A stretch of 64,000 nt of DNA from an uncultured Pseudomonadota bacterium (GCA_964493325.1 CAZBMD010000001.1:59021-123020), one strand, 5' to 3'; positions 24,282 to 41,916 are shown, numbered from the stretch's first letter. The notes: a model not told the origin generated them from the sequence alone. Program-made: numbers and translations.

Positions 24282-27233
24282 CTAAAAAGCTTCGCCAATC
24301 GTCAGATACCACGCGTATCCAAGATCATTTGGAATTCTTTTTTTCCACTTCCAACCAATATCAAAGCGCAACGCGCCAATCGGAGTCTTGTATCGCAAGC
24401 CAAAACCTGATGTTGGAAACCACGTATCAGTCAGGCCTAAAAATCCTGACTGGCTCAAGACACCAATATCTTGAAAAAGAACAGTGCCAAAAGATTTGTA
24501 GACCGGAATGCGAAGCTCAATATTACCATTGAGCATAGAACTACCGCCTTGAATAGTATATTCCTTGGTAACCAGCGGATCTATTGGATTTTTGGTGTCA
24601 TCAGATGTGGTATATTCATTAATAATATTGCCATTAAGATCTTTTTCAGTAACACCAAGAGGCGGCACAGCATCTTTTTCGTACCCGCGAACCGAATATG
24701 GTCCCCCAAGATAGAACCGTTCGATAGGCATAACAAAATCAAACTTACGCTTAAAAATATGGCCAATGCGAAGATGGGCTGCAAAAATAACTTTTTTATA
24801 GATAGGATAGAAAAATGATTGCTCGGCAAAAAGCTTTGCGGTTATATCTCCTTTATTTTGCGGAAGCATGAATTTAAGTGAGAAAAATCCCAACCCTCCT
24901 TTGCTCGGATTGAGTCTATTATCAAGATTGTCTATCAGAAGGCTTGGTTCAATAAATAAAAAAGGAAGCGTTGTGTCAATGACGCTACTATTTAATTTTA
25001 AATAGCCTCGTACTCGACTGGTCCGAAGCCACTCGCTCCCCACGTTTATTCCCCAGAAATAATTTTGCTTGTACTCATCACTAATGCCAAGCAAAAAACC
25101 ATTTTGAATAGCCTCGTACGCAGATCCACTCGATCCAATCTGGACAGGATGAACATACTTATTGGCATAACCTTTTATCTTACCCATAAATGGAAAATTT
25201 AACGGAGATGGCAAGGCATAGTCGACATCAAATTTACGTTCAAACTTGGTCCAATCAAAATCAAGCGATAGTTTGTCAGCTCGATTAGTTGGATTTTTTA
25301 AAATAAGCGAAGCTCCCAACTTTGGTGTTGATTGCCGTTTAAAGAGAAAATTTTTACTTGTTAAAAAATAACCAGCACGTAGCCGAACTTCTGCGGTATC
25401 ATCATCGGTTAGAGTCAAAATGATTGGTTTTTTACTACTTGGCTTAGCTAACTGATCAGGCTGAATTTGAACCGATTGAAAGATATCAAGACGCTTTAAC
25501 TTGCGGCGCGTTAGATCAATTTTATCACGACTCCACAAATCACCTTCTTTGCATTTTATTTCTTTTATAATTCGGCTAAACGGAAGCTTGGTATTGCCTC
25601 TGACAATAATTTTTCCAAAACGTACCTGCTCACCCATATCAATTTTCCAGCGAACAAAGATTCGCATCCTGTTATTAATTGTCTTTGAAGCCGGTAAAAC
25701 GAGAAACTCCGGTTCAACGTCTACATACCAATATCCAAGCTTTTGAAAGTAATTCATTAAAAACAGCCGCTGCTCTTGAAGCCAATTATAATTAAAAGGA
25801 ACCCACTGATTTTTAAAATGAGGTCGATATTTTTTAAAAAAATCAGAAGACTCAAGTTGCCGATAACCTTCAATCTCAAACCCATTCCAAAAACGCTGAA
25901 TCCCTTTTTCTACAATTAAGCTAATGGTGTAAGAATCTGTATCTGAGTTTTTTGTAACACGCTGTTCAAGAATCTTAAAATCCCAAAAACCAATAGAAAA
26001 GTATGATTGTGCAAGACGATTTATGCCATCTTCAAGCATCTGCTGATCATACTTTTTTTCATGCAGCAGATCTACGAAGAAAGATGAACATTCCTCCGGA
26101 ATTTCTGTTTTACTATCTCTTATTTCTATATTTTGAACAATAATCGGCTCTTGCTCTTCGATTGAAAAATGAAAACCAGAATTGCCAAGAGCTTGATAGG
26201 TAATCCGTGGCTTCCAATAGCCTCGCTTGTAGTACTCATGCATAATTTGTTCGGTAATAATGTCTGGAGAAAAAAGCCAATCAGGTTCATCAGTCCCTAT
26301 AATGTCTTCACGAATTTCTTGATCACTAAAAAGTGTATTACCGCTAAACCGTAATAATTTTCGCTTCCCTAGTGTAATTGAAACCGTAAGATCAACTGTA
26401 TGTTTTTTTGGGTTCACTTTGCGTGTCAGCAAAATACGGCTATTCAGAAAATCTTTCTTTTTTAAGATAGAGCGCATTTTTTTTATTTGCTTTTGAATCG
26501 AAGCTTTTTCATAGTCTGCGTGTAAAAGCTGGTTCTTAAATTTTCGCTCAATTTCATTAATAAAACTGGGAGCTCGGCCCTTTTCGCCCTGCAAGATAGC
26601 TTTATCAAGATCATTAATTTGAAAAGTAATCGCATTAATTGTGAATACTTGACGACGTTTAATACGTATTTTGACTGTAACAGATTTTCGCTTTTGCGAA
26701 TAAAAAATTTCGTCCGAAACTGACGCCTGAAAAAATCCTTGGTCATAAAGCGTCTTTTTAATGGTTTTTATTGATTCTTCATGTTGAACCACATCAAAAA
26801 CATCCCCAGGCTGAGGAGAATAAAGAGCGACATATTTTTGCCGACCAAAAAGTATCCCCAAAATAGAAACTTTTTTTAACGTCCAAGCGCCTATCAAAGT
26901 AAAGTGAAGGCGCTTCTGAACCCCATCATCAAATAAATCAATATTGATAGAAGCAAATCGCTTCTTGCTCATTAATTGTTTGTACGCATGGATGATATTG
27001 TGTTTGGTAATCAATGAATGAGGCTTAAGGCAGGTAAGATAAAAAAATTCTTCTTTGCTAAAAGGAATATCTGCGTCAAACGTAATTTCATTAAGCATAA
27101 GCGAATCTGCTTGAGATCCAAGCATTGCTGTAATCTTACTAAAATTTCCGCCATAGCCCGGGTCTTGAGAATAGACACTTACACAACAAAAAAATAGATG
27201 TAGAAATAAGAATAATATCTTTTTTGTGATCAC
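24282..27233 (-). CDS. Omp85-family outer membrane protein (TamA/BamA paralog, oversized)
   Basis: 983 aa with a GTG start, a signal peptide and POTRA-like repeats. The C-terminal barrel contains GGPYSVRGY and ends GYAWYLTIGEAF (terminal Phe). Confidence 0.8.
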   Translation of the reverse strand: MITKKILFLFLHLFFCCVSVYSQDPGYGGNFSKITAMLGSQADSLMLNEITFDADIPFSKEEFFYLTCLKPHSLITKHNIIHAYKQLMSKKRFASINIDLFDDGVQKRLHFTLIGAWTLKKVSILGILFGRQKYVALYSPQPGDVFDVVQHEESIKTIKKTLYDQGFFQASVSDEIFYSQKRKSVTVKIRIKRRQVFTINAITFQINDLDKAILQGEKGRAPSFINEIERKFKNQLLHADYEKASIQKQIKKMRSILKKKDFLNSRILLTRKVNPKKHTVDLTVSITLGKRKLLRFSGNTLFSDQEIREDIIGTDEPDWLFSPDIITEQIMHEYYKRGYWKPRITYQALGNSGFHFSIEEQEPIIVQNIEIRDSKTEIPEECSSFFVDLLHEKKYDQQMLEDGINRLAQSYFSIGFWDFKILEQRVTKNSDTDSYTISLIVEKGIQRFWNGFEIEGYRQLESSDFFKKYRPHFKNQWVPFNYNWLQEQRLFLMNYFQKLGYWYVDVEPEFLVLPASKTINNRMRIFVRWKIDMGEQVRFGKIIVRGNTKLPFSRIIKEIKCKEGDLWSRDKIDLTRRKLKRLDIFQSVQIQPDQLAKPSSKKPIILTLTDDDTAEVRLRAGYFLTSKNFLFKRQSTPKLGASLILKNPTNRADKLSLDFDWTKFERKFDVDYALPSPLNFPFMGKIKGYANKYVHPVQIGSSGSAYEAIQNGFLLGISDEYKQNYFWGINVGSEWLRTSRVRGYLKLNSSVIDTTLPFLFIEPSLLIDNLDNRLNPSKGGLGFFSLKFMLPQNKGDITAKLFAEQSFFYPIYKKVIFAAHLRIGHIFKRKFDFVMPIERFYLGGPYSVRGYEKDAVPPLGVTEKDLNGNIINEYTTSDDTKNPIDPLVTKEYTIQGGSSMLNGNIELRIPVYKSFGTVLFQDIGVLSQSGFLGLTDTWFPTSGFGLRYKTPIGALRFDIGWKWKKRIPNDLGYAWYLTIGEAF

Positions 27234-27347
27234 GAATAGTTCTACCTAGTACAAGAGAAGCGTTTTTGCGGCATCTCTTAACTTTACTATTTTTGTTTAA
27301 TTTTGTATCATTCTAACGGAAATTTTTCATTTTTTCTTTGATTTCAT

Positions 27348-27422
27348 GGCCCCATCGTCTAACGGTTAGGACGCTGCCCTCTCAAGGCGGAAATAAGGGT
27401 TCGATTCCCCTTGGGGCCGCCA
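27348..27422 (+). tRNA. tRNA-Glu (anticodon CUC), CCA encoded
   Basis: Cloverleaf read by hand. Acceptor GGCCCCA/TGGGGCC, D arm GTCT-AACGGTTA-GGAC, anticodon stem CTGCC/GGCGG with loop CT-CTC-AA, T loop TTCGATT, then discriminator G and CCA. Confidence 0.9.
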
Positions 27423-27467
27423 TAAAGTTGAGAGAGTTGCAAAGTAAAGTATTGTGTAAAAAATTCA

Positions 27468-27749
27468 TCACTCACCAATAATTCTAAAAACTCCTCTAAA
27501 ATCTTTTTCATTAATCAACGGTTCAACAGTAAGTTCAACAACTACTGATTTATTAGTGCCTTTATATAAATGATCAATCAGTTTATCAAGATTTTCACTA
27601 GGACCACATGCAAGGATGACAACGCTGCCATCATCTGCATTTTGAATGGTGCCTTCAACATTAAGATCATGTGCATGCTTTTGAGCAAACGCTCGATATG
27701 CAACACCCTGAACTTTTCCCATGACTTTGATTTTTACACAGCGCTTCAT
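27468..27749 (-). CDS. acylphosphatase-like protein
   Basis: 93 aa. VKIKVMGKVQGVAYRAF matches the acylphosphatase signature V.G.VQGV.FR. Confidence 0.7.
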   Translation of the reverse strand: MKRCVKIKVMGKVQGVAYRAFAQKHAHDLNVEGTIQNADDGSVVILACGPSENLDKLIDHLYKGTNKSVVVELTVEPLINEKDFRGVFRIIGE

Positions 27750-27857
27750 CCTAATTCTCCTTTTTATGAGCGAGCTGAGCGTATCAGAATATACAAATGG
27801 ATGTCAAAAAATGATATTTTCTTGGTCCTCTATCAATCGAATAGCTATTCTAGAAGT

Positions 27858-29024
27858 TTATCCCACAAGATGTGAATATAATTTCTTATGTTCCTTAACC
27901 ATAAATTTTTGCTGAAATGGATCGAGTAAATCAGGATGCGTTCTCATTGAAGCGCAAAGATTTTCATCATTAGTAAGCTCCAAAAGTTTTTCTCCAAATT
28001 CATGCCACTGACCAACAGGAACAAGAAAACCATTTTTATAATTTTCGACAACTTCTGCAATACCTCCAACATCATAAGCAACAACAGGAAGCCCGCACAA
28101 ACGCGCTTCAACCACAGCACAGGGCAAGCCCTCCCAAAGCGAACTAAGAGCAAAAACTTTCCAAGAGCGCATTATCGTTGCAACATCTTGTTGCCATCCC
28201 AAAAGTTCAATGTGAGTCGCAAGCTTATTTTGCACTATCCACGACTGAATTTTATCTCGCAGCTGCCCGTCACCGATAATTTGAAGTAATAGCCTTTTTT
28301 TAAGCACCGGACGAGCATTGTCATAAACAAATTTAAAAGAACGAAGAAGGTCAAAAATATTTTTTTGAGGCTTAAAACATGAAACGGTACCAATCACAAA
28401 CAAATTCGAATCTTCAATCAATAAAGCATCTTTTTGAGCTGGAGAAAAAAAATGTACATCATCAATAGCTGCTCGAATAATTGAGCTTTTTTTTGAAAAA
28501 AAAGGAAATAATCGCGTTCCCGTAATACGATCTTTTTCGGAAACACAAATAAAATGAGTCGTTATTAAGCTCGAAAAATATTCAACAAGAACAATTGCAA
28601 ACCACTTTATCGCTGATTGATGATCATGAAACCCATAGCCATGAACCGTATGCACCCGATGTTTGATCCCCGCAAAAAAAGCTGCCCAACGCCCCAAAAT
28701 TCCAGCCTTCGTGCTATGGGTATGAACAACAATCGAAGGATGCTTTGCTTTTAATTTTCTGAGCTGGAAGATGATATCAAAAAATGCCTTTATTTCTTGA
28801 AAAGCGCTTTTGATGCCAACTTCACGTGTAAGGCTTTTTAGAAGACATACTGACGAAAATTGCTCTACCTGAGGAATCAATTCGCCCTGATTACCAGAAA
28901 TCAGCGAGCATGATACATCAGATTGATTCATACCCCGCATAAGCGCAAGGCAAACTTTTTGAGCACCTCCAAGCTCAAGCTTGGTAATGATATAGACAAC
29001 ATGTACAGAACCAGGCGTCTTCAT
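27858..29024 (-). CDS. glycosyltransferase family 4 (GT-B)
   Basis: 388 aa with LELGGAQKV at the N-terminus and EGLPCAVVEARLCGLPVVAYDVGGIAEVV (E-x7-E type motif). RBS ggagg. Starts 31 nt after the fused c-subunit gene. Confidence 0.8.
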   Translation of the reverse strand: MKTPGSVHVVYIITKLELGGAQKVCLALMRGMNQSDVSCSLISGNQGELIPQVEQFSSVCLLKSLTREVGIKSAFQEIKAFFDIIFQLRKLKAKHPSIVVHTHSTKAGILGRWAAFFAGIKHRVHTVHGYGFHDHQSAIKWFAIVLVEYFSSLITTHFICVSEKDRITGTRLFPFFSKKSSIIRAAIDDVHFFSPAQKDALLIEDSNLFVIGTVSCFKPQKNIFDLLRSFKFVYDNARPVLKKRLLLQIIGDGQLRDKIQSWIVQNKLATHIELLGWQQDVATIMRSWKVFALSSLWEGLPCAVVEARLCGLPVVAYDVGGIAEVVENYKNGFLVPVGQWHEFGEKLLELTNDENLCASMRTHPDLLDPFQQKFMVKEHKKLYSHLVG

Positions 29025-29055
29025 CCCGCCTCCTTTTAACTGTTGAACTTTGTCA

Positions 29056-30015
29056 TCAATTTCGTATCAAAAGCAGAGCTACAACCATTGCATAAACCAC
29101 TGAAGATTCAATAAAGGCTATTGCAAGAAGAGTTGTTCGTAGAAGCGTAGAATATTGCGAAGGTTCACTTGCAAGATGACAAGCACTACGCGAAGCAACA
29201 TACCCCATTCCAATACCTGGCCCTAAAGAACCAACTCCCATAGCAAAAGCCGCTACCACAAAAGGCATTATAGCTGTTACAAGAGATGTTGCATTGGGAG
29301 CAATTGGAGAAAAAATAATCAAAAGACTAAACAAAAGACAAAATGCTAAAGGAGTTTCGATAACCGCTTGGCACAAAATAGTAAAAGGGAATATTTTGCT
29401 GTAGGCATTTTTAAACAATCCCATTGTCCTGCAACTTGCTGATGCAAGCATTGCCTGACCAACAGACGGCCCCCAGCAACCAATAGCCATACAGGCTCCT
29501 GAAGCAAGCAATTTAAGACTTTCCGCAAGCTCTAACTCACTTGTTATGCGCATACGAATGAGCAAACTAATAATAAAGGCAAACATTACAGGAGCTTCAA
29601 TAATTGACTGTGTAACCAGCATAAGCGTTGAAATCTTCTGAGCGATAAAAGGCTGCCGAGCAATAGATTGCGTAGCTGAGCGAACAACAAAACTGGAGGC
29701 TATCCCAACAGTTGCAGCAGCACTACTGACTGCAATAGCCATCCCAAGTTCGGCAAGAGCAATCGGAAGTGTTATGACTTCTGGCGCACCAAAAATCAAA
29801 ATCAGCGCTGTAACAAGGGCAATAATTGCTCCACTTTCGATAAGAGCAAGTCCAATAAGCATAGTTTTAAAACAAGACTCATTACTAATTGGTTGGCGAG
29901 TTGTTGCTTGAATAGTACTCAATCCGGCAAGACCAAGACCTATTCCTCCCCCAATACCACCAAAGACAATAGTGAGGCCTATTGATAGATGATGAATATC
30001 ATGCGGTGAAATCAT
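29056..30015 (-). CDS. atpE: F-type ATP synthase c-subunit, four hairpins fused in one 319-aa polypeptide
   Basis: 80-aa periodicity. Carboxylates E60, E140, E220 and E303 sit in LIESGAI, IIEAPVM, VIETPLA and FIESSVV. RQP loops at 40-42 and 120-122. Gly-rich first helices (GGIGGGIGLG, GSLGPGIGMGY). The start overlaps the atpB stop (ATGA). Confidence 0.8.
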   Translation of the reverse strand: MISPHDIHHLSIGLTIVFGGIGGGIGLGLAGLSTIQATTRQPISNESCFKTMLIGLALIESGAIIALVTALILIFGAPEVITLPIALAELGMAIAVSSAAATVGIASSFVVRSATQSIARQPFIAQKISTLMLVTQSIIEAPVMFAFIISLLIRMRITSELELAESLKLLASGACMAIGCWGPSVGQAMLASASCRTMGLFKNAYSKIFPFTILCQAVIETPLAFCLLFSLLIIFSPIAPNATSLVTAIMPFVVAAFAMGVGSLGPGIGMGYVASRSACHLASEPSQYSTLLRTTLLAIAFIESSVVYAMVVALLLIRN

Positions 30016-30875
30016 GCATGCTCCTTAGGCGCTTGCTGATCCTCTGCTACATGGTCATCATCTTCATGCTGAATACCAATTGCAAGATAGGTGGCAGTAA
30101 GCATAGTCAATACATATGATTGAATCATACCTTCAAAAATACCAAACCCCATTTGTAGCCAAGAGAGCGCAAGAATAACATGAAGCGCCAACCCTGATAC
30201 AACTCTAAAGACTGAATATTGCTGATCAAGATTAAATAGCTTAATCAAAACAATGATAGGCAAAGCTATTAGCGTGAACGACATAAAATAAAACTTATGA
30301 ATACCAACAAATTCAATCATCATAATTAAAATAACGCCCCCACCCAAGATATTACCAAAAAGTCGAAACGTCATAGAGGCTATTTTGGCAAGATCACCAA
30401 TAATGTGCATAGGAGCCATGACAATCGAAGGTGTTGCAAATTCTCTCAAAAATCCACTCAGATGATGAACTTTAATTTTTTGGTATTGAACATAGATAAA
30501 ACTTGTCATAGCAAGCGCAAAGGTTGTATTTAAATCTTTTGTAGCCTCATCCAAAAAAGGTATCAACCCAACCAAGCAGGCTGCAAACGTAAATGTAAAG
30601 ATTGATGCTATGAAGGCAAAATAACGATAATTAAACGCTGAGAATGCTTCTTCGCTCATGTTGACAAACAATAAAACAAATTTTTCATAGACAGTTGCGG
30701 CAAGACTAAATTCTTTTTTGATTGCCTTACGACCAAAAAGAACAAAGCAAAACAACAATGCCATGGCAATCCATGTATGAATAAGCGTCTCAATATTTAA
30801 AGACCAAAAATCTCCTGTAAGCCCAAGCCATGCAAATGGCTGAACGGTATGGTAATCAAAAAGTGATAAATTCAT
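30012..30875 (-). CDS. atpB: F-type ATP synthase a-subunit
   Basis: The ATG at 30875 gives MNLSLFDYH... FWSLNIETL, DLNTTFALAM, the essential Arg motif FRLFGNILGG and the final helix IQSYVLTMLTATYLA parallel E. coli AtpB landmarks. Confidence 0.85.
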   Translation of the reverse strand: MNLSLFDYHTVQPFAWLGLTGDFWSLNIETLIHTWIAMALLFCFVLFGRKAIKKEFSLAATVYEKFVLLFVNMSEEAFSAFNYRYFAFIASIFTFTFAACLVGLIPFLDEATKDLNTTFALAMTSFIYVQYQKIKVHHLSGFLREFATPSIVMAPMHIIGDLAKIASMTFRLFGNILGGGVILIMMIEFVGIHKFYFMSFTLIALPIIVLIKLFNLDQQYSVFRVVSGLALHVILALSWLQMGFGIFEGMIQSYVLTMLTATYLAIGIQHEDDDHVAEDQQAPKEHA

Positions 30876-30877
30876 AA

Positions 30878-31171
30878 TTAAGCCTTTACCTTGATACAAA
30901 TCGATCCTATAAAACAAAGAAAGAAAAGCGTCAAAAAGTAAGTGAAATTTATTGCCACGCTGGACATCAGTATAACCAAAGATGCAAAAAGAAGTGTAAT
31001 TCTCAAAATATAATTGAAAAATAATGCAATAAAAACCTGCCGATGGTTCATATCTTGCATATCTATAGAGCTTTTATTATGGGCGCGGATATGCATTGAC
31101 TTAAAAAGTCTTCCGTAAGCAACCCCAAAACATACTCCAAGCACCGACGATATAAATACAGCTCCAACCAT
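30878..31171 (-). CDS. small integral membrane protein (possible AtpI/AtpR-like accessory)
   Basis: 97 aa with about 3 hydrophobic helices. Its stop lies 2 nt before the atpB ATG. Assignment rests on position only. Confidence 0.4.
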   Translation of the reverse strand: MVGAVFISSVLGVCFGVAYGRLFKSMHIRAHNKSSIDMQDMNHRQVFIALFFNYILRITLLFASLVILMSSVAINFTYFLTLFFLCFIGSICIKVKA

Positions 31172-31502
31172 CAAAAAAGCCTTTTATCTTGTGATTAAGC
31201 AACCCGGTAAGCACTACAAGCCAAACCAACAAATCCACACGGCAATCTTAGGGCTAATTTTTCATCAGGGCAAGCATTGATAATTTTATTTCCCAAACAA
31301 TCATAAACAAACAGAAATAAAAGACTTTTTAGTTATTTTATCCATGTATTGATTTTCAATTAATAATAAATTTAAGATAAAAGTGCAAAGTTAAAGGATA
31401 AAAAAATAGATCGATAATAATGATATTTGAAGTAATCAAATTTTAGACGGGAGACGTTTTCCAAAAACTAGGTGGAAAACATTGTTAGGGGGAGAATTTG
31501 TT

Positions 31503-32027
31503 ATGAATATGAAAAATAACGTAAAAATCGTAATTTTTTTAGGAGTGGCGATTGCGTTAGGAATCTCGCTAGCAAACTCTACAACCGGAACTAAAAAAGT
31601 GGCAAAAATGCCTATTCCAATTGCTAATGGTTGGTACACCCTTGGAGGTCTTTTTGACTTAATCAATACAAATAATCCTTCAAAAAATTCAAATTTCCTC
31701 GTCCTCGTCAATGGCTCCACCCAATCTGCTAGCGTAGCAGGGTTATCAACTCAATACATCATCGCAAACCGAGCTGCAATGGTACAGTTACTTGCCGATG
31801 AGGATCGCATCAACCAGTTAACAAGCGCTGGCAGCCTAACAACCATAACCAAACCGTACTACCAAAGACTATTGCTTTATTTCAAACTACCCAATTCAAC
31901 ATACAAATTTTACCTGAATGATCCTACTCCAGGGAAAGTAGTAAACACTGCCAGAGGAACTACCAACCCAGCCCTCAACATTATTAATAAGTGGGATTTT
32001 ACAAAATACATACCATCAATGCGGTAA
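31503..32027 (+). CDS. secreted protein, paralog A of a tandem pair
   Basis: The ATG at 31503 follows gggggag and a signal peptide is present. Shares YTLG.LF.LINTNN, NSNFLVL, MVQL.AD..RI.QLTS and TNPALNIINKWDF with the next gene. Confidence 0.65.
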   Translation: MNMKNNVKIVIFLGVAIALGISLANSTTGTKKVAKMPIPIANGWYTLGGLFDLINTNNPSKNSNFLVLVNGSTQSASVAGLSTQYIIANRAAMVQLLADEDRINQLTSAGSLTTITKPYYQRLLLYFKLPNSTYKFYLNDPTPGKVVNTARGTTNPALNIINKWDFTKYIPSMR

Positions 32028-32076
32028 TAAAAAGACTTAATTGAAAAATAGAGAATACACAGTAGGGGGAACGATT

Positions 32077-32616
32077 ATGAAGACTAACAAGATACTATTC
32101 GCTCTAGGACTTGGATGCTTATTCGCTGTATCGAGCATTTCAGAAGTCAGCACGGGAACACCAAAAACAATGAACAGACGATCAATAAAAAAGGGTACTA
32201 AAAAATTGCCTGTACCAGTTGCAGGCAAAGAATACACCCTGGGAGCTCTGTTTAATTTGATCAATACAAACAACGCATCAGGTAACTCAAATTTCTTAGT
32301 TCTTGATAAGAATGGTGTTTCACGCTCAGCATCAACTGTTGGCGTTTCATTGTCATACATTCAAGAAAACGCAGACACCATGGTTCAGCTTAATGCGGAT
32401 ACTGAGCGTATCAGTCAATTAACATCAAAAGGTGTATTGACAAGCAAAACTGCACCACAATATAGCAAAATACTACTCTATTTTGAGCTTGATGGCATAC
32501 CTGGTCGCTTGTATATTAATGACCCTGCACCAGGCAAAGTCATTAAAAGCTCTTTTAAAGAAACAAATCCAGCATTGAATATTATCAATAAATGGGATTT
32601 TAGTAAGTCATTCTAA
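32077..32616 (+). CDS. secreted protein, paralog B of a tandem pair
   Basis: The ATG at 32077 follows ggggga and a signal peptide is present. Same conserved blocks as 31503..32027. Confidence 0.65.
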   Translation: MKTNKILFALGLGCLFAVSSISEVSTGTPKTMNRRSIKKGTKKLPVPVAGKEYTLGALFNLINTNNASGNSNFLVLDKNGVSRSASTVGVSLSYIQENADTMVQLNADTERISQLTSKGVLTSKTAPQYSKILLYFELDGIPGRLYINDPAPGKVIKSSFKETNPALNIINKWDFSKSF

Positions 32617-34802: not shown

Positions 34803-37190
34803 CTACTCACCAAGTAACATGATTTCTTTCAAAATAGTGTCAGGGTTAAGCGAGATTGAATCGATACCAAGCTTGACCAAAAATTCGGCAAATTCTGGAT
34901 AATCTGACGGAGCTTGTCCACAAATGCCAATTTTTTTACCATTGCGCTTTGCGCCAGTAATTGCCATCTCGAGCATCAAAAGAACCGCTTTATTCCGCTC
35001 ATCAAACACATGAGCAACCAGTGCCGAGTCTCGATCAACAGCCAATGTCATTTGCGTTAAATCGTTTGACCCAATCGAAAACCCATCAAAGACTTTACTA
35101 AAATCATCAATGAGTAAAACATTGGAAGGAATCTCGCACATCATATAAATTTGCAGGCCATTTTCTCCTTGTACCAAGCCATGACTTTTCATAACAGCAA
35201 TTACTTGCTCAGCTTCGTCTACCGTTCGGACAAACGGGAGCATTAAAATTACGTTAGTCAGACCCATTTCGTCTCGAATTTTTTTCATGGCGTGGCATTC
35301 AAGCGCAAATGCTTCTTTATAACTTGGATGATAGTAGCGTGACGCACCGCGAAAACCGATCATTGGGTTTTCTTCGATCGGTTCAAAGACACTCCCAGCA
35401 AAAAGCTTGCTGTACTCATTGCTTTTAAAATCAGAAAGGCGAATAATCACCGGCTCTGGGTAAAATGCCGCAGCAATAGTTCCAGCTTCTTGAGCTAGCT
35501 TATCGATAAAGTAACGTTTTTTATCTTGGTAATGTACAGTCAGCTGATCAAAAATCTTTTTATCTTCAGGATCTTGTATGCGCTCTGAATGAACAAGCGC
35601 CATAGGATGAAGCTGAATTGCGTTGTTGATGATAAACTCAAGGCGCGCAAGACCAACACCGCTGTGAGGCAATTTTGCAAGATTAAAAGCTTCGTCAGGG
35701 TTGGCAACGTTCATCATTAGTTTGACAGGTGGTGTCTTGAGCGTTGTCAGTTCAATAGCTTTAAGCTCAAATGGCAAGGTACCTGCATACACCGAGCCTA
35801 CTTCTCCATTGCTGCAATCAAGCGTAATTGCTTGGCCATCTTTAATTTTTGACGTTCCATCTTGCGTACCAACAACCGCTGGAATACCTATTTCTCGACT
35901 GATGATCGCAGCATGACACGTACGACCACCACGGTTTGTTACAATGCCTGCAGCACGCTTCATAACTGGCTCCCAATCAGGGTCAGTCATGTCGGTAACA
36001 ATAATGTCACCAGCTTGAACAAGATTCATATCTTTGGCCGAAGCAATGACCCGTGCAAGGCCTGTTGCAATACGCCTACCCACACTTTTACCAACAACAA
36101 GCAACTGTTCTTTCCCTGCTGCAGATTTATCGAGCACATACTCTTCAAGCTTGGTCTGATGCTGTTTTTGTGAATGAATAGTTTCTGGCCGCGCTTGCAC
36201 AATGTAAAGCTTGCCATCAATACCATCCTTGGCCCACTCAATGTCCATCGGACACCACACCCCTTTTTGAGTTGAGTAGTACTGTTCAATAATCAGCGCT
36301 TGCTGCGCAAGAAACAATACCTCATCATCGGTGAGTGAAAAATGTGAGCGCTCGTCCGGCGAAGTATCAAGATTGCGCGTTTTTTCTTTGCCACTTGCAT
36401 ATTCCATGCGGAGCAATTTGCTTCCTAATCTTTTTTTGAGCAGAGGCTTAAAGCCTTTGGCAAGTGTTGGTTTGTGAACATAAAATTCATCTGGATTCAC
36501 CGCTCCTTGAACAATATTTTCACCAAGGCCGTACGAAGAGGTTATATAAACAACATCTTTAAATCCACTCTCGGTATCAAGCGTAAAAATAACACCGGAA
36601 CAAGCCTTATCTGAGCGAATCATTTTTTGAACGCCAATAGAAAGAGCAACGCTCATGTGATCAAAGTCATTATCAATGCGATACGAAATTGCCCGATCGG
36701 TAAACAATGAAGCAAAAGCTGCAGGAACGCAAGCAAGCAGCTCTTCTGGGCCTTTGATATTAAGATAGGTTTCTTGTTGACCAGCAAAGGACGCTTGCGG
36801 TAAATCTTCGGCAGTTGCTGATGAGCGCACAGCAACATCACACAACTTCCCATACATCTTTTCTAATGCTGCGTATGCCTGAGTAATTTCTAGAGCAAGA
36901 TCCTGAGGAACAGAAGCATTGCGCATGAGCGTGCGCACTTCTTGCCCAATGCGAGAAAATTCTCCCAGGTGATCTTTATCAAGAGTAGAAAGCAACTTGG
37001 TAATTGGTTTTTTGAGTGAATTACTTTCAAGAAAGTATTCATAAGCTTCTGCGGTAATGGCAAATCCAGTTGGAACCTGCACACCTTGTTGCTTTAAATT
37101 GCAAATCATCTCTCCAAGAGAAGCGTTCTTTCCGCCAACAAGATTGATGTCTTTTAGACCGATCTCTTCGAATAATTTTATAAATTTCAT
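34803..37190 (-). CDS. ppsA: phosphoenolpyruvate synthase (pyruvate, water dikinase)
   Basis: MKFIKLFEEIGLKDINLVGGKNASLGEM, the phosphohistidine region GGRTCHAAIISRE and a C-terminal PEP-utilising TIM-barrel domain. An alternative ATG lies at 37220. Confidence 0.95.
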   Translation of the reverse strand: MKFIKLFEEIGLKDINLVGGKNASLGEMICNLKQQGVQVPTGFAITAEAYEYFLESNSLKKPITKLLSTLDKDHLGEFSRIGQEVRTLMRNASVPQDLALEITQAYAALEKMYGKLCDVAVRSSATAEDLPQASFAGQQETYLNIKGPEELLACVPAAFASLFTDRAISYRIDNDFDHMSVALSIGVQKMIRSDKACSGVIFTLDTESGFKDVVYITSSYGLGENIVQGAVNPDEFYVHKPTLAKGFKPLLKKRLGSKLLRMEYASGKEKTRNLDTSPDERSHFSLTDDEVLFLAQQALIIEQYYSTQKGVWCPMDIEWAKDGIDGKLYIVQARPETIHSQKQHQTKLEEYVLDKSAAGKEQLLVVGKSVGRRIATGLARVIASAKDMNLVQAGDIIVTDMTDPDWEPVMKRAAGIVTNRGGRTCHAAIISREIGIPAVVGTQDGTSKIKDGQAITLDCSNGEVGSVYAGTLPFELKAIELTTLKTPPVKLMMNVANPDEAFNLAKLPHSGVGLARLEFIINNAIQLHPMALVHSERIQDPEDKKIFDQLTVHYQDKKRYFIDKLAQEAGTIAAAFYPEPVIIRLSDFKSNEYSKLFAGSVFEPIEENPMIGFRGASRYYHPSYKEAFALECHAMKKIRDEMGLTNVILMLPFVRTVDEAEQVIAVMKSHGLVQGENGLQIYMMCEIPSNVLLIDDFSKVFDGFSIGSNDLTQMTLAVDRDSALVAHVFDERNKAVLLMLEMAITGAKRNGKKIGICGQAPSDYPEFAEFLVKLGIDSISLNPDTILKEIMLLGE

Positions 37191-37290
37191 ACACTGATCC
37201 TTTGGGGCTTGTATGCCCATCTACTCAGATTGGATAAATAGCGCCTAAGCGTAGAGAAAACTATACCAAGAGCGAGAAAAAAGGAATAGT

Positions 37291-40010: not shown

Positions 40011-40430
40011 ATGTGCAATAAAATGCTTGCAGTAATTGTTATCAGCGTATTTCAAATAACAATTCAGCTTTCTGGAATGATTCCTTTTTCATTCAGCGAC
40101 ATTCAAACAAACCCATTTGAAAGTAATAAAGAAATTTATCAACCATGGAATGAAGTGAACCTTGATAAAGAATTTACAAATAACCTGATTTCTACATCAG
40201 AAGAACTCATCAATTTTGTGAGCCAAAATGATTCATTAATTAATGAATTTAAACAGTTTGTTCTCCTGACTAAACTCAATCAACTCAACAATACGCAGCA
40301 TGAAGTAAAATTACATCCGGACTGGCAGGAAGTCTTTAATAACCTTCCCTGTGATATAAAGAATGCGCTTTCAGATGACATCATCAACGAATGCTCTCTA
40401 ACAGACAGTGAAACTGAAGATTATGAATAA
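40011..40430 (+). CDS. small secreted protein sharing a C-terminal module with the downstream WD40 protein
   Basis: 139 aa with a signal peptide. The FKQFVLLTKLN...LHPDWQEVFNNLP...DIIN block aligns with the C-terminus of the next ORF. Its stop overlaps the next ATG (ATGAATAA). Confidence 0.6.
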   Translation: MCNKMLAVIVISVFQITIQLSGMIPFSFSDIQTNPFESNKEIYQPWNEVNLDKEFTNNLISTSEELINFVSQNDSLINEFKQFVLLTKLNQLNNTQHEVKLHPDWQEVFNNLPCDIKNALSDDIINECSLTDSETEDYE

Positions 40431-41916
40431 AAAATTAGCTGCAATAATCATAACGCTTTTGTTTCATTCTATTTCTCTCATAGGAAACCTACGCGCAGGC
40501 GTAAACTCATTGCAAAATCTCGCTTTTCAAAAAATCATAAACGAGCTGCGCAATACAAAAGTAAACTTGAACGAAGAAATTCCCTATAGCCTTAGAGATG
40601 AAAATTATTCCTATAACAAGAATCTTGATAGCATACTTCTTTCACAACAAAGCTATTTATTTGATAGATTAGTAAAACCTTTGCATACCTATTTTCCAAT
40701 TCTTGAAGAGCCGATCTGTGCTACACATATTGCCGGAATAGCCTCTCCCAACAACATTGATAAATCAGATATGATTCATTCGCTGATTCAGATAAAAAAC
40801 GGTGAATTAAAAGGCTATCTTGTTTCAGCATCTCATGAAAATTCTATCAAGGTCTTGAATCCTCATACTGGTGAATGCATAAGAACTCTTGAGGGACACA
40901 CTGGTGCAATAACTTCAGTCATTGAACTTGTTTATTTGGATGCCAATATTTCATCAAAAATTAGACAAAATTATATTGCATCAGCATCTCGTGACAATAC
41001 CATCAGAGTTTGGGATATTTTAACAGGTGAATGTATCCGTATTTTTGAAGCAGAAGATGCCTTCGTTATTATCGAACTAAAAAATGGCACTATTGCATCT
41101 GCAGGAAAAGAAATAAAGATCTGGGATACTTCTATAGGTGAGTGTATTGAGATTCTAAGAGAACACTCCGATAGAATTAGCTCCTTAGCTCAACTAAATA
41201 ATGATAATTTTCTCGCATCAGCCTCATTTGATGGCACAATCAAAATCTGGGATCTTTCTACAGGGCAATACATACGTATGCTTAATCATAATTACGACAG
41301 AATTCAACATTGGGCACTTTCTGTCATTCAGCTCAATAATGGCAATCTTGCATCTACATCAAGTGATAAAACTATTAAAATTTGGGACCCATTTACAGGT
41401 GAATGCATCCGCACACTAGAGGGACATGACGATTCGGTAACCTGCGTCATCCAACTCAGAAACGGTAATCTTATATCTGGATCTACCGATGGAACTATCA
41501 AAATCTGGGATCTTTCTAGAAACAAGGAAGATGAATGTCTAGCAACGCTAGACGGGCATACTAGCACAATAAAGACATTAGTTCAGCTTAATGACGGAAA
41601 TCTTGTTTCTGGATCGTACGATCGTACCATTAAACTATGGCATCTCTATTCCCCAGACATGCAAAAATTCAGTCTTAAGCAATATATTCTTCTGCTGCAT
41701 TTAAATAATTACAAAAACAATTATGAAACAATATCGCTTCATAACGAATGGTTAAAAATTTTTCAAACCCTACCTGAGAGCTGTCAGAACAAATTCCGTG
41801 CAATCATTCAAAATCAAGAAGACGATGATTATCAAGTAGGCTCAAAAAGAAAATATCTTAATGGTGAGACTCATTACCTATTAACCAAAAACAAAAACTT
41901 AAAATATGAATTATAG
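40423..41916 (+). CDS. WD40 beta-propeller protein (7 repeats) with signal peptide
   Basis: The ATG at 40423 gives MNKKLAAIIITLLFHSISLIG. Seven repeats have the form GH..-x-V..L...-SAS.D.TIK(I/V)WD..TGECIRTL. Confidence 0.8.
   Translation: MNKKLAAIIITLLFHSISLIGNLRAGVNSLQNLAFQKIINELRNTKVNLNEEIPYSLRDENYSYNKNLDSILLSQQSYLFDRLVKPLHTYFPILEEPICATHIAGIASPNNIDKSDMIHSLIQIKNGELKGYLVSASHENSIKVLNPHTGECIRTLEGHTGAITSVIELVYLDANISSKIRQNYIASASRDNTIRVWDILTGECIRIFEAEDAFVIIELKNGTIASAGKEIKIWDTSIGECIEILREHSDRISSLAQLNNDNFLASASFDGTIKIWDLSTGQYIRMLNHNYDRIQHWALSVIQLNNGNLASTSSDKTIKIWDPFTGECIRTLEGHDDSVTCVIQLRNGNLISGSTDGTIKIWDLSRNKEDECLATLDGHTSTIKTLVQLNDGNLVSGSYDRTIKLWHLYSPDMQKFSLKQYILLLHLNNYKNNYETISLHNEWLKIFQTLPESCQNKFRAIIQNQEDDDYQVGSKRKYLNGETHYLLTKNKNLKYEL

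Follow-up and report, generated by a model that had tools for sequence, protein, structure and literature searches.

A natural four-hairpin F-type c-subunit conserved across the Dependentiae, a probable rotor component of an F1Fo-ATPase with scattered genes

We analysed a window of 64,000 nucleotides (nt) given as DNA of an uncultured Pseudomonadota bacterium (GCA_964493325.1 CAZBMD010000001.1:59021-123020). On its minus strand, three abutting open reading frames (ORFs) encode a small membrane protein, an F-type a-subunit and a 319-amino-acid (aa) protein made of four fused c-subunit hairpins, here called c4 (Table 1). We read this locus as the membrane-sector front end of a complete F1Fo-ATPase whose genes are scattered; c4 would belong to the rotor, likely in a hybrid ring with a single-hairpin c-subunit (c1) encoded elsewhere, and the enzyme would work as an ATP-driven pump. 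We put the probability of this reading as a whole at about 0.7. Taken by itself, the assignment of c4 to the rotor of a complete, dispersed F1Fo-ATPase is very probable, while the hybrid c4 and c1 ring specifically, argued by analogy, has about even odds.

Profile searches place c4 among the F-type c-subunits. The ATP-synt_C profile (PF00137) matches it in four separate stretches (E-value 2.6e-34; 117.7 bits against a gathering cut-off of 24), the number that the first-pass annotation, made from the sequence alone, had expected. Several NCBIfam F0F1 subunit C models rank first (E-values from 1e-24 to 2e-32), and two NCBIfam models score above their cut-offs (NF005363, 84.5 against 71 bits; TIGR01260, 73.7 against 43.95 bits), whereas the V-type K models are much weaker (2.5e-9 against 2e-32 for the F-type c models). 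A search of the PDB by sequence returned 17 matches, all 17 of them F-type c-subunits, and among solved structures 4bem_J, the double-hairpin c1 from the F-type enzyme of Acetobacterium woodii, comes closest in fold as well as in sequence, although it covers only half of the query; the fold of V-type c/K subunits matches with a TM-score of about 0.8 over two hairpins. The sequence affinity of c4 is of the F-type and not of the V/A-type. F-type c-subunits are usually single hairpins of 70-90 aa, a form from which c4 departs in both length and hairpin number, and no chain with four hairpins was found among the solved structures. AlphaFold2, given an alignment of 117 sequences, generated a model with a predicted local distance difference test (pLDDT) value of 97.2 and a predicted TM-score (pTM) of 0.93, in which eight long helices, as many as had been anticipated, form four hairpins.

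The hairpins are 19-31% identical to one another and no DNA-level repeat was found in the gene, which marks the four-hairpin fusion as old and rules out an artefact of assembly. The first-pass annotation had likewise argued for an old fusion, from an identity of 25-35% judged by eye that proved slightly too high. The 117 c4 homologues show a mean column identity of 57%, with invariant residues that are specific to individual hairpins. In profile-profile comparisons, hairpin 4 and c1 share the highest identity of any pair (38%, E-value 1.7e-19). An origin by two rounds of duplication, pairing hairpin 1 with 3 and hairpin 2 with 4, was considered and rejected, as the profile-profile scores show no such pairing.

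Survey of related genomes for the fusion showed that it is present across the Dependentiae. Full-length homologues number more than 110; they measure 316-329 aa, are 41-61% identical to the window protein, and their source bacteria carry the label Dependentiae, TM6 or Babeliales. An exhaustive hidden Markov model (HMM) search yielded 239 cluster representatives at E<=1e-30, and a scan of one genome per species yielded 48 loci with adjacent a and c4 genes, in Dependentiae/TM6/Babeliales genomes; no matches were obtained in the viral contigs scanned. On these sequence matches, the four-hairpin c4 is conserved across the phylum Dependentiae (TM6), the parasitic phylum of the window organism. Among 51 related loci, the order a-c4 is invariant wherever upstream DNA is present, and the a-subunit gene adjoins c4 in 50; the exception is L045, whose contig ends inside c4, so that the upstream DNA is missing.

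The four carboxylates that had been proposed for the middle of the second helix of each hairpin, E60, E140, E220 and E303, are all found in the window c4, where they align with the c-subunit carboxylate. Among the closer relatives, a carboxylate is kept at these positions in 100%, 96%, 98% and 100%, respectively; position 140 is Glu in 114 of 119, and position 303, either Glu or Asp, is Glu in 97% and Asp in 3%. E220 is conserved in 90% of the wider family. In the same set of closer relatives, R40 and E60 are invariant in hairpin 1 and T221 in hairpin 3. Hairpin 3 also has a nearly invariant Q187, and hairpin 4 an invariant Y308. The equivalent of Gln32 of Ilyobacter tartaricus in hairpin 1 is Gln in most family members and Leu27 in the window c4.

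Each hairpin also carries its own signature in the family. The cytoplasmic loop and the ion-site motif are RQP and ES(G) in hairpin 1, RQP and E/Q-A/T-P in hairpin 2, x-N-K/R and ETP in hairpin 3, and x-[DEN]-P and ES..Y in hairpin 4; in c1 they are KYP and Q...E-[TS]-[SA]..Y. Hairpins 1 and 2 have their RQP loops where the first-pass annotation had located them; the loops of hairpins 3 and 4, which it had called degenerate, are, like the RQP loops, conserved in a position-specific manner. This pattern suggests that the hairpins hold non-equivalent positions relative to gamma/epsilon, which turns with the ring. Because every hairpin passes the stator in turn, fixed contacts with gamma/epsilon would be the simplest source of hairpin-specific loops.

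A wider survey of the carboxylates covered 128 full-length representatives (P0362-P0511) from the exhaustive HMM search, with two alignment methods in agreement. Read from hairpin 1 to hairpin 4, the commonest pattern is EQED (58/128), followed by EEEE (21/128), EQEE (19/128) and EEED (5/128), and EQED or EQEE together account for 77 of the representatives. Hairpin 2 has Gln in 91 (about 71%) and Glu in 29, in the motifs QTP and EAP, respectively, and in hairpin 4 Asp is commoner than Glu across the family. The c4 proteins of Babela massiliensis and of locus L043 have the EQED pattern, whereas the window c4, with EEEE, belongs to the minority of about 20% that keeps four carboxylates. The retention of all four sites in an F-type four-hairpin c, singled out at first reading, therefore stands for the window gene and for only about a fifth of the family sample, while the accompanying remark that fusions of this kind usually lose carboxylates largely holds. 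In most of the family there are three ion sites per four hairpins, judging by the residues at these positions, which is the same type of loss as in A. woodii c1 and the V-type proteolipids. Purifying selection acts strongly on the mid-membrane carboxylates of three or four hairpins. Phylum-wide conservation of all four carboxylates had been suggested by the first homologue set and was overturned by the exhaustive search: the first set was skewed to close relatives by a word prefilter, and the pattern used in the genome scan, '[IM]EA[PA]...', itself demands Glu in hairpin 2.

The partner of c4 is a genuine F-type a-subunit. The ATP-synt_A profile (PF00119) matches it over profile positions 2-216 of 217 (E-value 1.7e-31; 110.2 bits against a cut-off of 33.9), and the translation contains the essential-Arg motif FRLFGNILGG in the penultimate helix, noted at first reading, and the final helix IQSYVLTMLTATYL. 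NCBIfam F0F1 subunit A models rank first, and the N-ATPase models stay below their cut-offs for the c-subunit (TIGR03322, 93.1 against 130.85 bits) as well as for the a-subunit (TIGR03306, 81.3 against 302.1 bits). In one locus from a long-read metagenome-assembled genome (L043:9212-9983), a frame break divides the a-subunit into ORFs of 139 and 95 aa, while the adjoining c4 is intact; the break probably reflects a sequencing indel and not a pseudogene.

In nearly all of 50 related loci, a small ORF of about 85-115 aa ends at or overlaps the start of the a-subunit gene. Its family pattern comprises three helices, with G..G..Y in the first transmembrane helix and FW in the third. Out of 28 members, 9 match Pfam ATP-synt_I (PF03899), weakly (best E-value 5e-5), 6 match AtpR (PF12966; best 0.0023) and 3 match TIGR03165; the small protein of the window has no significant Pfam or NCBIfam match of its own. 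A matching small membrane protein is encoded upstream of atpB in Babela (gene 639). The upstream protein, which had been left anonymous apart from its roughly three transmembrane helices, does have three helices, and its family may, on these weak matches, be read as AtpI/AtpR-like. Bacterial Atp1/UncI is described as an aid to c-ring assembly (PMC9806626).

The three minus-strand ORFs were confirmed at the positions first given. The stop codon of the small ORF lies 2 nt before the likely ATG of atpB, the ATG of c4 overlaps the stop codon of the a-subunit as ATGA, and a Shine-Dalgarno sequence (AAGGAG, 30021-30026) precedes the c4 start with a 5-nt spacer. As first annotated, the locus has no b, delta, alpha, gamma, beta or epsilon gene beside it, and none was found in the 64-kilobase (kb) window. 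The description of an a+c-only locus is correct as to the lack of F1 and stator neighbours but not as to its content: the locus is atpI-like, atpB and atpE, with which the canonical atp order begins, split from the rest. The presence of the a-subunit gene and of the AtpI-like gene is consistent with membership of c4 in the ring of an F1Fo enzyme.

The remainder of the enzyme is found in relatives. A second type of locus (L062-L068) carries a gene for a single-hairpin c1 of 82-89 aa, followed by b', b, delta and alpha; examples are L067:9944-13138 and L065:9517-12973, with 85 further loci (L062-L148, L152-L155). These 87 loci comprise 7 from genomes and 80 from metagenomes, the latter with the same b'-b-delta-alpha order wherever enough downstream DNA is present. 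No a-subunit or c4 gene was found within 10 kb of any of the 87 c1 loci, c4 and c1 never lie within 10 kb of each other among the 51 c4 and 87 c1 loci, and the only a-subunit context seen in the phylum is the one beside c4 (51 loci). With 363 homologues, c1 shows a mean column identity of 68% and has the KYP loop in place of RQP. The gamma gene (665 homologues) is solitary, beside tsaE and yacP, in Babela and three other loci; it is monocistronic, divergent from yacP/tsaE and away from alpha and beta (L002:10001-10825, L151:10001-10840, Babela gene 468). The contig of c4 locus L043 and the longest contig of gamma homologue P0142 are both 1,496,855 bp long and are apparently one contig.

The Babela massiliensis genome shows the same trio, listed in the supplementary tables of PMC4378268 as an 84-aa hypothetical protein with three transmembrane helices, AtpB of 261 aa and an 'AtpE' of 320 aa with eight transmembrane helices, where it stands uncommented. 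In the COG table of the same paper, AtpA, D, G, H, C, F and B are each represented by a single gene and COG0636 by two, with none of the V-type, and the single a-subunit gene is the one beside c4. Published reconstructions report an ATP synthase in every TM6 genome studied, together with ATP import and the lack of an electron transport chain, and propose reverse operation of the enzyme (PMC4776705, PMC6561590). The atp genes of Dependentiae are spread over at least three or four loci (I-a-c4; c1-b'-b-delta-alpha; gamma; beta/epsilon). Pairing of the a/c4 locus with F1 genes encoded elsewhere, one of the two options raised by the first-pass annotation, is thus supported in relatives by the c1 operon, the solitary gamma and the Babela gene set.

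In the working that we propose, c4, in which four F-type c hairpins are covalently joined, would serve as a unit from which the rotor ring is built. Each hairpin of the window protein keeps its Glu, so that each c4 could carry four ions past the a-subunit arginine per turn. The window genome would hold a c1-b'-b-delta-alpha operon, a solitary gamma gene, and beta and epsilon elsewhere; c4 and c1 would co-assemble in one hybrid ring, by analogy with the A. woodii ring, and the AtpI-like protein encoded upstream would be a helper in ring assembly. We take the order of the A. woodii operon to be I-B-E1-E2-E3-F-H-A; the split order I-a-c4 / c1-b'-b-delta-alpha would then be the expected outcome of breaking an order of this kind. 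The enzyme would probably be mainly an ATP-driven ion pump that upholds the membrane potential, because Dependentiae have no respiratory chain and import host ATP. In the many family members that lack the hairpin-2 site, the ion/ATP ratio would be reduced, as it is in V-type pumps. This is the classical pump-gearing argument, summarised in PMC9171764, which shows that such enzymes can still make ATP.

Several observations weigh against this proposal. Ring composition, stoichiometry, coupling ion and direction are all deduced from gene content and sequence, and the argument from a lower ion/ATP ratio does not apply to the window gene, whose c4 keeps all four carboxylates. The c1 and F1 genes are seen in relatives and not in the visible 64 kb of the window organism, and neither the homologue tables nor the metagenome scan nor the long-contig comparisons yielded a contig or assembly that holds c1 as well as c4. 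The second c-type gene of Babela is known indirectly, from the COG0636 count in PMC4378268, and the shared contig of c4 and gamma is recognised by its equal size, not by its record name. The c1 motif contains the complete set of Na+ ligands (Q, E, T/S, S/A, Y), as defined for Ilyobacter tartaricus (PMC2359735), whereas the c4 hairpins carry differing partial sets, which may fit poorly with a mixed ring that binds a single ion species. Because c1 has this full set and the c4 hairpins do not, we make no choice between Na+ and H+ as the coupling ion, which sequence cannot decide. Mutual exclusion of c1 and c4, as could be read from the absence of joint matches, was rejected: only 7/120 c1 proteins fit the scan patterns, and with this coverage about 3 matches would be expected in the c4-bearing assemblies, so that zero is uninformative.

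We favour the hybrid ring of c4 and c1 over a ring of c4 only and over a ring of c1 only with c4 repurposed. A rotor of two to four c4 copies (8, 12 or 16 hairpins), with c1 either serving an alternative rotor under different conditions or occurring in lineages without c4, would agree with the translational coupling of c4 to the a-subunit, its own strong Shine-Dalgarno sequence and the apparent ion competence of all four window hairpins. Whole rings or large segments encoded as one polypeptide exist elsewhere, with 13 hairpins in M. kandleri (PMC2359735) and 8, 12 and 14 in proteins found here, and the lack of an assembly with both genes also points this way, although the narrow search patterns account for that lack. 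Such a rotor is nevertheless unlikely: c1 is more conserved than c4 (68% against 57%) and heads the stator/F1 operon in 87 loci that have no a-subunit, the sole a-subunit context being beside c4. In Babela (PMC4378268), COG0636 counts two genes, against a single gene each for a, b and alpha. A rotor in multiples of four hairpins, as had been supposed, is likewise not required, as the phylum also has the highly conserved single-hairpin c1. The converse, a ring of c1 only, would leave c4 as a paralogue outside the rotor, be it an assembly template, an element of the ring lumen or the stator, or part of a separate a/c4 ion leak. The position of c1 directly before b, the usual place of a c gene, and the divergence of the loops of hairpins 3 and 4 from RQP would suit this arrangement. 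The RQP loop contacts gamma/epsilon in E. coli, and its retention in hairpins 1 and 2, together with the purifying selection on three or four carboxylates, makes a c4 outside the rotor improbable. The coupling of c4 to the only a-subunit gene and to the AtpI-like gene, and its closeness in fold and sequence to a bona fide ring subunit (4bem_J), argue in the same direction.

A stand-alone a/c4 module that conducts ions without F1 in an energy parasite, the other option raised at first reading, is suggested by the window itself, with no F1 or stator gene in 64 kb, and by the ATP-importing, parasitic habit of the phylum. It is unsupported, because the phylum carries F1 and stator genes at separate loci. 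These genes are widespread, the one a-subunit gene of Babela adjoins c4, one c4-bearing contig apparently also holds gamma, and an ATP synthase is encoded in all TM6 genomes studied (PMC4776705, PMC6561590), which leaves this module very improbable. Finally, nothing beyond its unusual length would mark c4 as an artefact, be it c genes in tandem that were wrongly assembled or a pseudogene in decay. This possibility, of negligible probability, is refuted by the divergence of the hairpins and by the recurrence of the same 316-329-aa architecture in hundreds of independent assemblies; the absence of a DNA repeat, the intact frame and the confident AlphaFold2 model also stand against it.

The nearest known system is the Na+-ATP synthase of A. 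woodii (PDB 4BEM), which has an F-type, fused multi-hairpin c and a separate single-hairpin c gene, two kinds of gene that the Dependentiae also have as a phylum. Its ring contains nine single-hairpin c2/c3 chains, given as c2 in 4BEM, and one chain of the 182-aa c1, in which, as in most of the c4 family and unlike the window c4 (EEEE), one fused hairpin has Gln in place of the carboxylate. The two systems differ in that A. woodii c1 has two hairpins and c4 four, and in that the fused and single c genes share one operon in A. woodii while c4 and c1 stand at different chromosomal loci in Dependentiae. Co-assembly has been seen in the A. woodii ring; in Dependentiae, c4 and c1 are known here from genes alone, c1 being widespread in the phylum. 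At only about 28% identity between c4 and A. woodii c1, common descent of the two fusions is not established.

Tandem fusions of hairpins are also known from the rotors of V/A-type enzymes, with 2, 3 or 13 hairpins in the proteolipids of E. hirae (NtpK), M. jannaschii and M. kandleri, and M. kandleri resembles the window c4 in having an ion site in every hairpin (PMC2359735). These proteolipids work with subunit I, in contrast to c4, whose partner is an F-type a-subunit (PF00119). With the canonical atpIBEFHAGDC operon, the window locus shares the order of I-like, a and c genes, the essential Arg, the mid-helix carboxylate and the RQP loop of hairpins 1 and 2; the Dependentiae set differs in being divided into at least three or four pieces and in having two kinds of c gene, one of them quadruplicated. 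The N-ATPase operon (atpDCQRBEFAG) likewise has a small three-helix protein directly upstream of the a-subunit, and some members of the small-ORF family match AtpR/TIGR03165, but its c and a models fall under their cut-offs here, its gene order is different, and no atpD-atpC stands in front of the present locus. Engineered fusions (E. coli c2/c3; Bacillus PS3 c10, PMC8809890) show that linked F-type hairpins assemble into functional rings. They are laboratory constructs of identical repeats, whereas c4 is natural and ancient, with hairpins that have diverged and are individually conserved.

The searches also brought up other uncharacterised multi-hairpin proteolipids (P0382, P0405, P0493, P0473, P0434, P0369, P0391, P0505). 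One of them, a Trp-rich protein of 968 aa and roughly 12 hairpins, is present on many contigs. Asgard archaea (Promethearchaeota, Hodarchaeota) have proteins with 8 and 14 hairpins, and Gracilibacteria one of 524 aa. There are also F-like proteins with five hairpins, in which either a single carboxylate (P0369, P0391, P0505) or the full five (P0434) are present.

A more specific and tentative proposal, which we consider possible but rather less likely than not to be right, is that the Dependentiae rotor is hard-wired and asymmetric. One c4 chain, or a small fixed number of them, would form a four-hairpin docking pad for the gamma/epsilon foot, with RQP loops on hairpins 1 and 2 only, and c1, with its KYP loop and full Na+ set, would fill the rest of the ring. 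Gene structure, rather than self-assembly, would then set the ring size and the ion/ATP ratio, and the toggle between EEEE and EQED, four or three sites per c4, would tune the gear of the pump of an ATP-importing parasite.

The genes around the module were also examined (Table 1). The gene downstream of c4 is a GT4 glycosyltransferase, as first annotated. No terminator-like site was found in the 31-nt gap between the two, and AAGGAGG at 29029-29035 precedes the ATG of the glycosyltransferase gene, which is probably co-transcribed with c4, judging by the sequence. Scans for promoters and terminators gave matches at a frequency no higher than in shuffled sequence. The order a-c4-GT4-acylphosphatase-Omp85 of the window is kept in most of the 51 related loci, while a number of others have interruptions, such as a His-tRNA synthetase gene in L150; the envelope genes GT4-acylphosphatase-Omp85, on the minus strand, track the ATPase module. 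The window contains two Omp85-family genes. One is BamA-like with four POTRA matches, and orthologues of the other, the one near the module, show Omp85 and faint POTRA matches. Divergent from the atp module are genes for two tandem, paralogous, predicted secreted proteins that share a C-terminal NPALNIINKWDF motif and belong to no Pfam family. Further away lie genes for a pyruvate phosphate dikinase, which is also found near the atp module in L150, and for a eukaryote-like WD40 beta-propeller protein.

Table 1. Positions of the atp module, the hairpins of c4 and neighbouring genes in the 64,000-nt window.
Feature	Position	Strand	Remarks
Small three-helix membrane protein, weakly AtpI/AtpR-like	30878..31174	-	98 aa from TTG; 97 aa from ATG at 31171; first gene of the module
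atpB, F-type Fo a-subunit	30012..30917	-	ORF of 301 aa from TTG; probable start ATG 30875, giving 287 aa
atpE-c4, four fused hairpins, eight transmembrane helices	29056..30015	-	319 aa; PF00137, AlphaFold2
c4 hairpin 1, aa 1-80	29776..30015	-	Loop R40-Q41-P42; E60 (codon 29836-29838); motif LIESG
c4 hairpin 2, aa 81-160	29536..29775	-	Loop R120-Q121-P122; E140 (codon 29596-29598); motif IIEAP
c4 hairpin 3, aa 161-242	29290..29535	-	Non-canonical loop L-F-K; E220 (codon 29356-29358); motif IETP
c4 hairpin 4, aa 243-319	29059..29289	-	Loop S-E-P; E303 (codon 29107-29109); motif IESSVVY
GT4 glycosyltransferase	27858..29024	-	PF00534 and PF13439; 31 nt downstream of c4; context, not ATPase
GT4-acylphosphatase-Omp85 envelope genes	24282-29024	-	Track the ATPase module
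Omp85-family gene near the module	24282-27233	-	983 aa
Omp85-family gene, BamA-like	5505-7952		815 aa; four POTRA matches
Predicted secreted protein	31482-32027	+	181 aa
Predicted secreted protein, paralogue	32041-32616	+	191 aa
Pyruvate phosphate dikinase	34803-37220
WD40 beta-propeller protein, eukaryote-like	40408-41916		502 aa

Multi-hairpin proteolipids of V/A-type enzymes and the two-hairpin c of A. woodii are already known. Public databases already contain the c4 genes, generically named 'ATP synthase F0 subunit C', and full-text literature searches and the Dependentiae genome papers mention the ATP synthase with no account of the fusion, the second c gene or the split gene set. A natural, phylum-wide four-hairpin F-type c with differentiated hairpins and a companion c1 thus apparently has no earlier description.

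The stoichiometry of the rotor ring sets the ion/ATP ratio of every rotary ATPase, and an F-type ring is normally a homo-oligomer of single hairpins whose number is fixed by packing alone. To our knowledge, the double-hairpin c1 of A. woodii is the one natural exception studied so far. For the Dependentiae, the present analysis means that lone Fo genes in one window of a reduced genome do not imply an organism without F1. With its distinct hairpin signatures, its companion c1 and its four- and three-site versions, c4 offers a ready system for studying how ring size, asymmetry and gearing are encoded, and Dependentiae have been cultured in amoebae and a flagellate, so that the enzyme should be purifiable. 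It could reveal by what re-gearing an F-type synthase becomes an ATP-driven pump in energy parasites.

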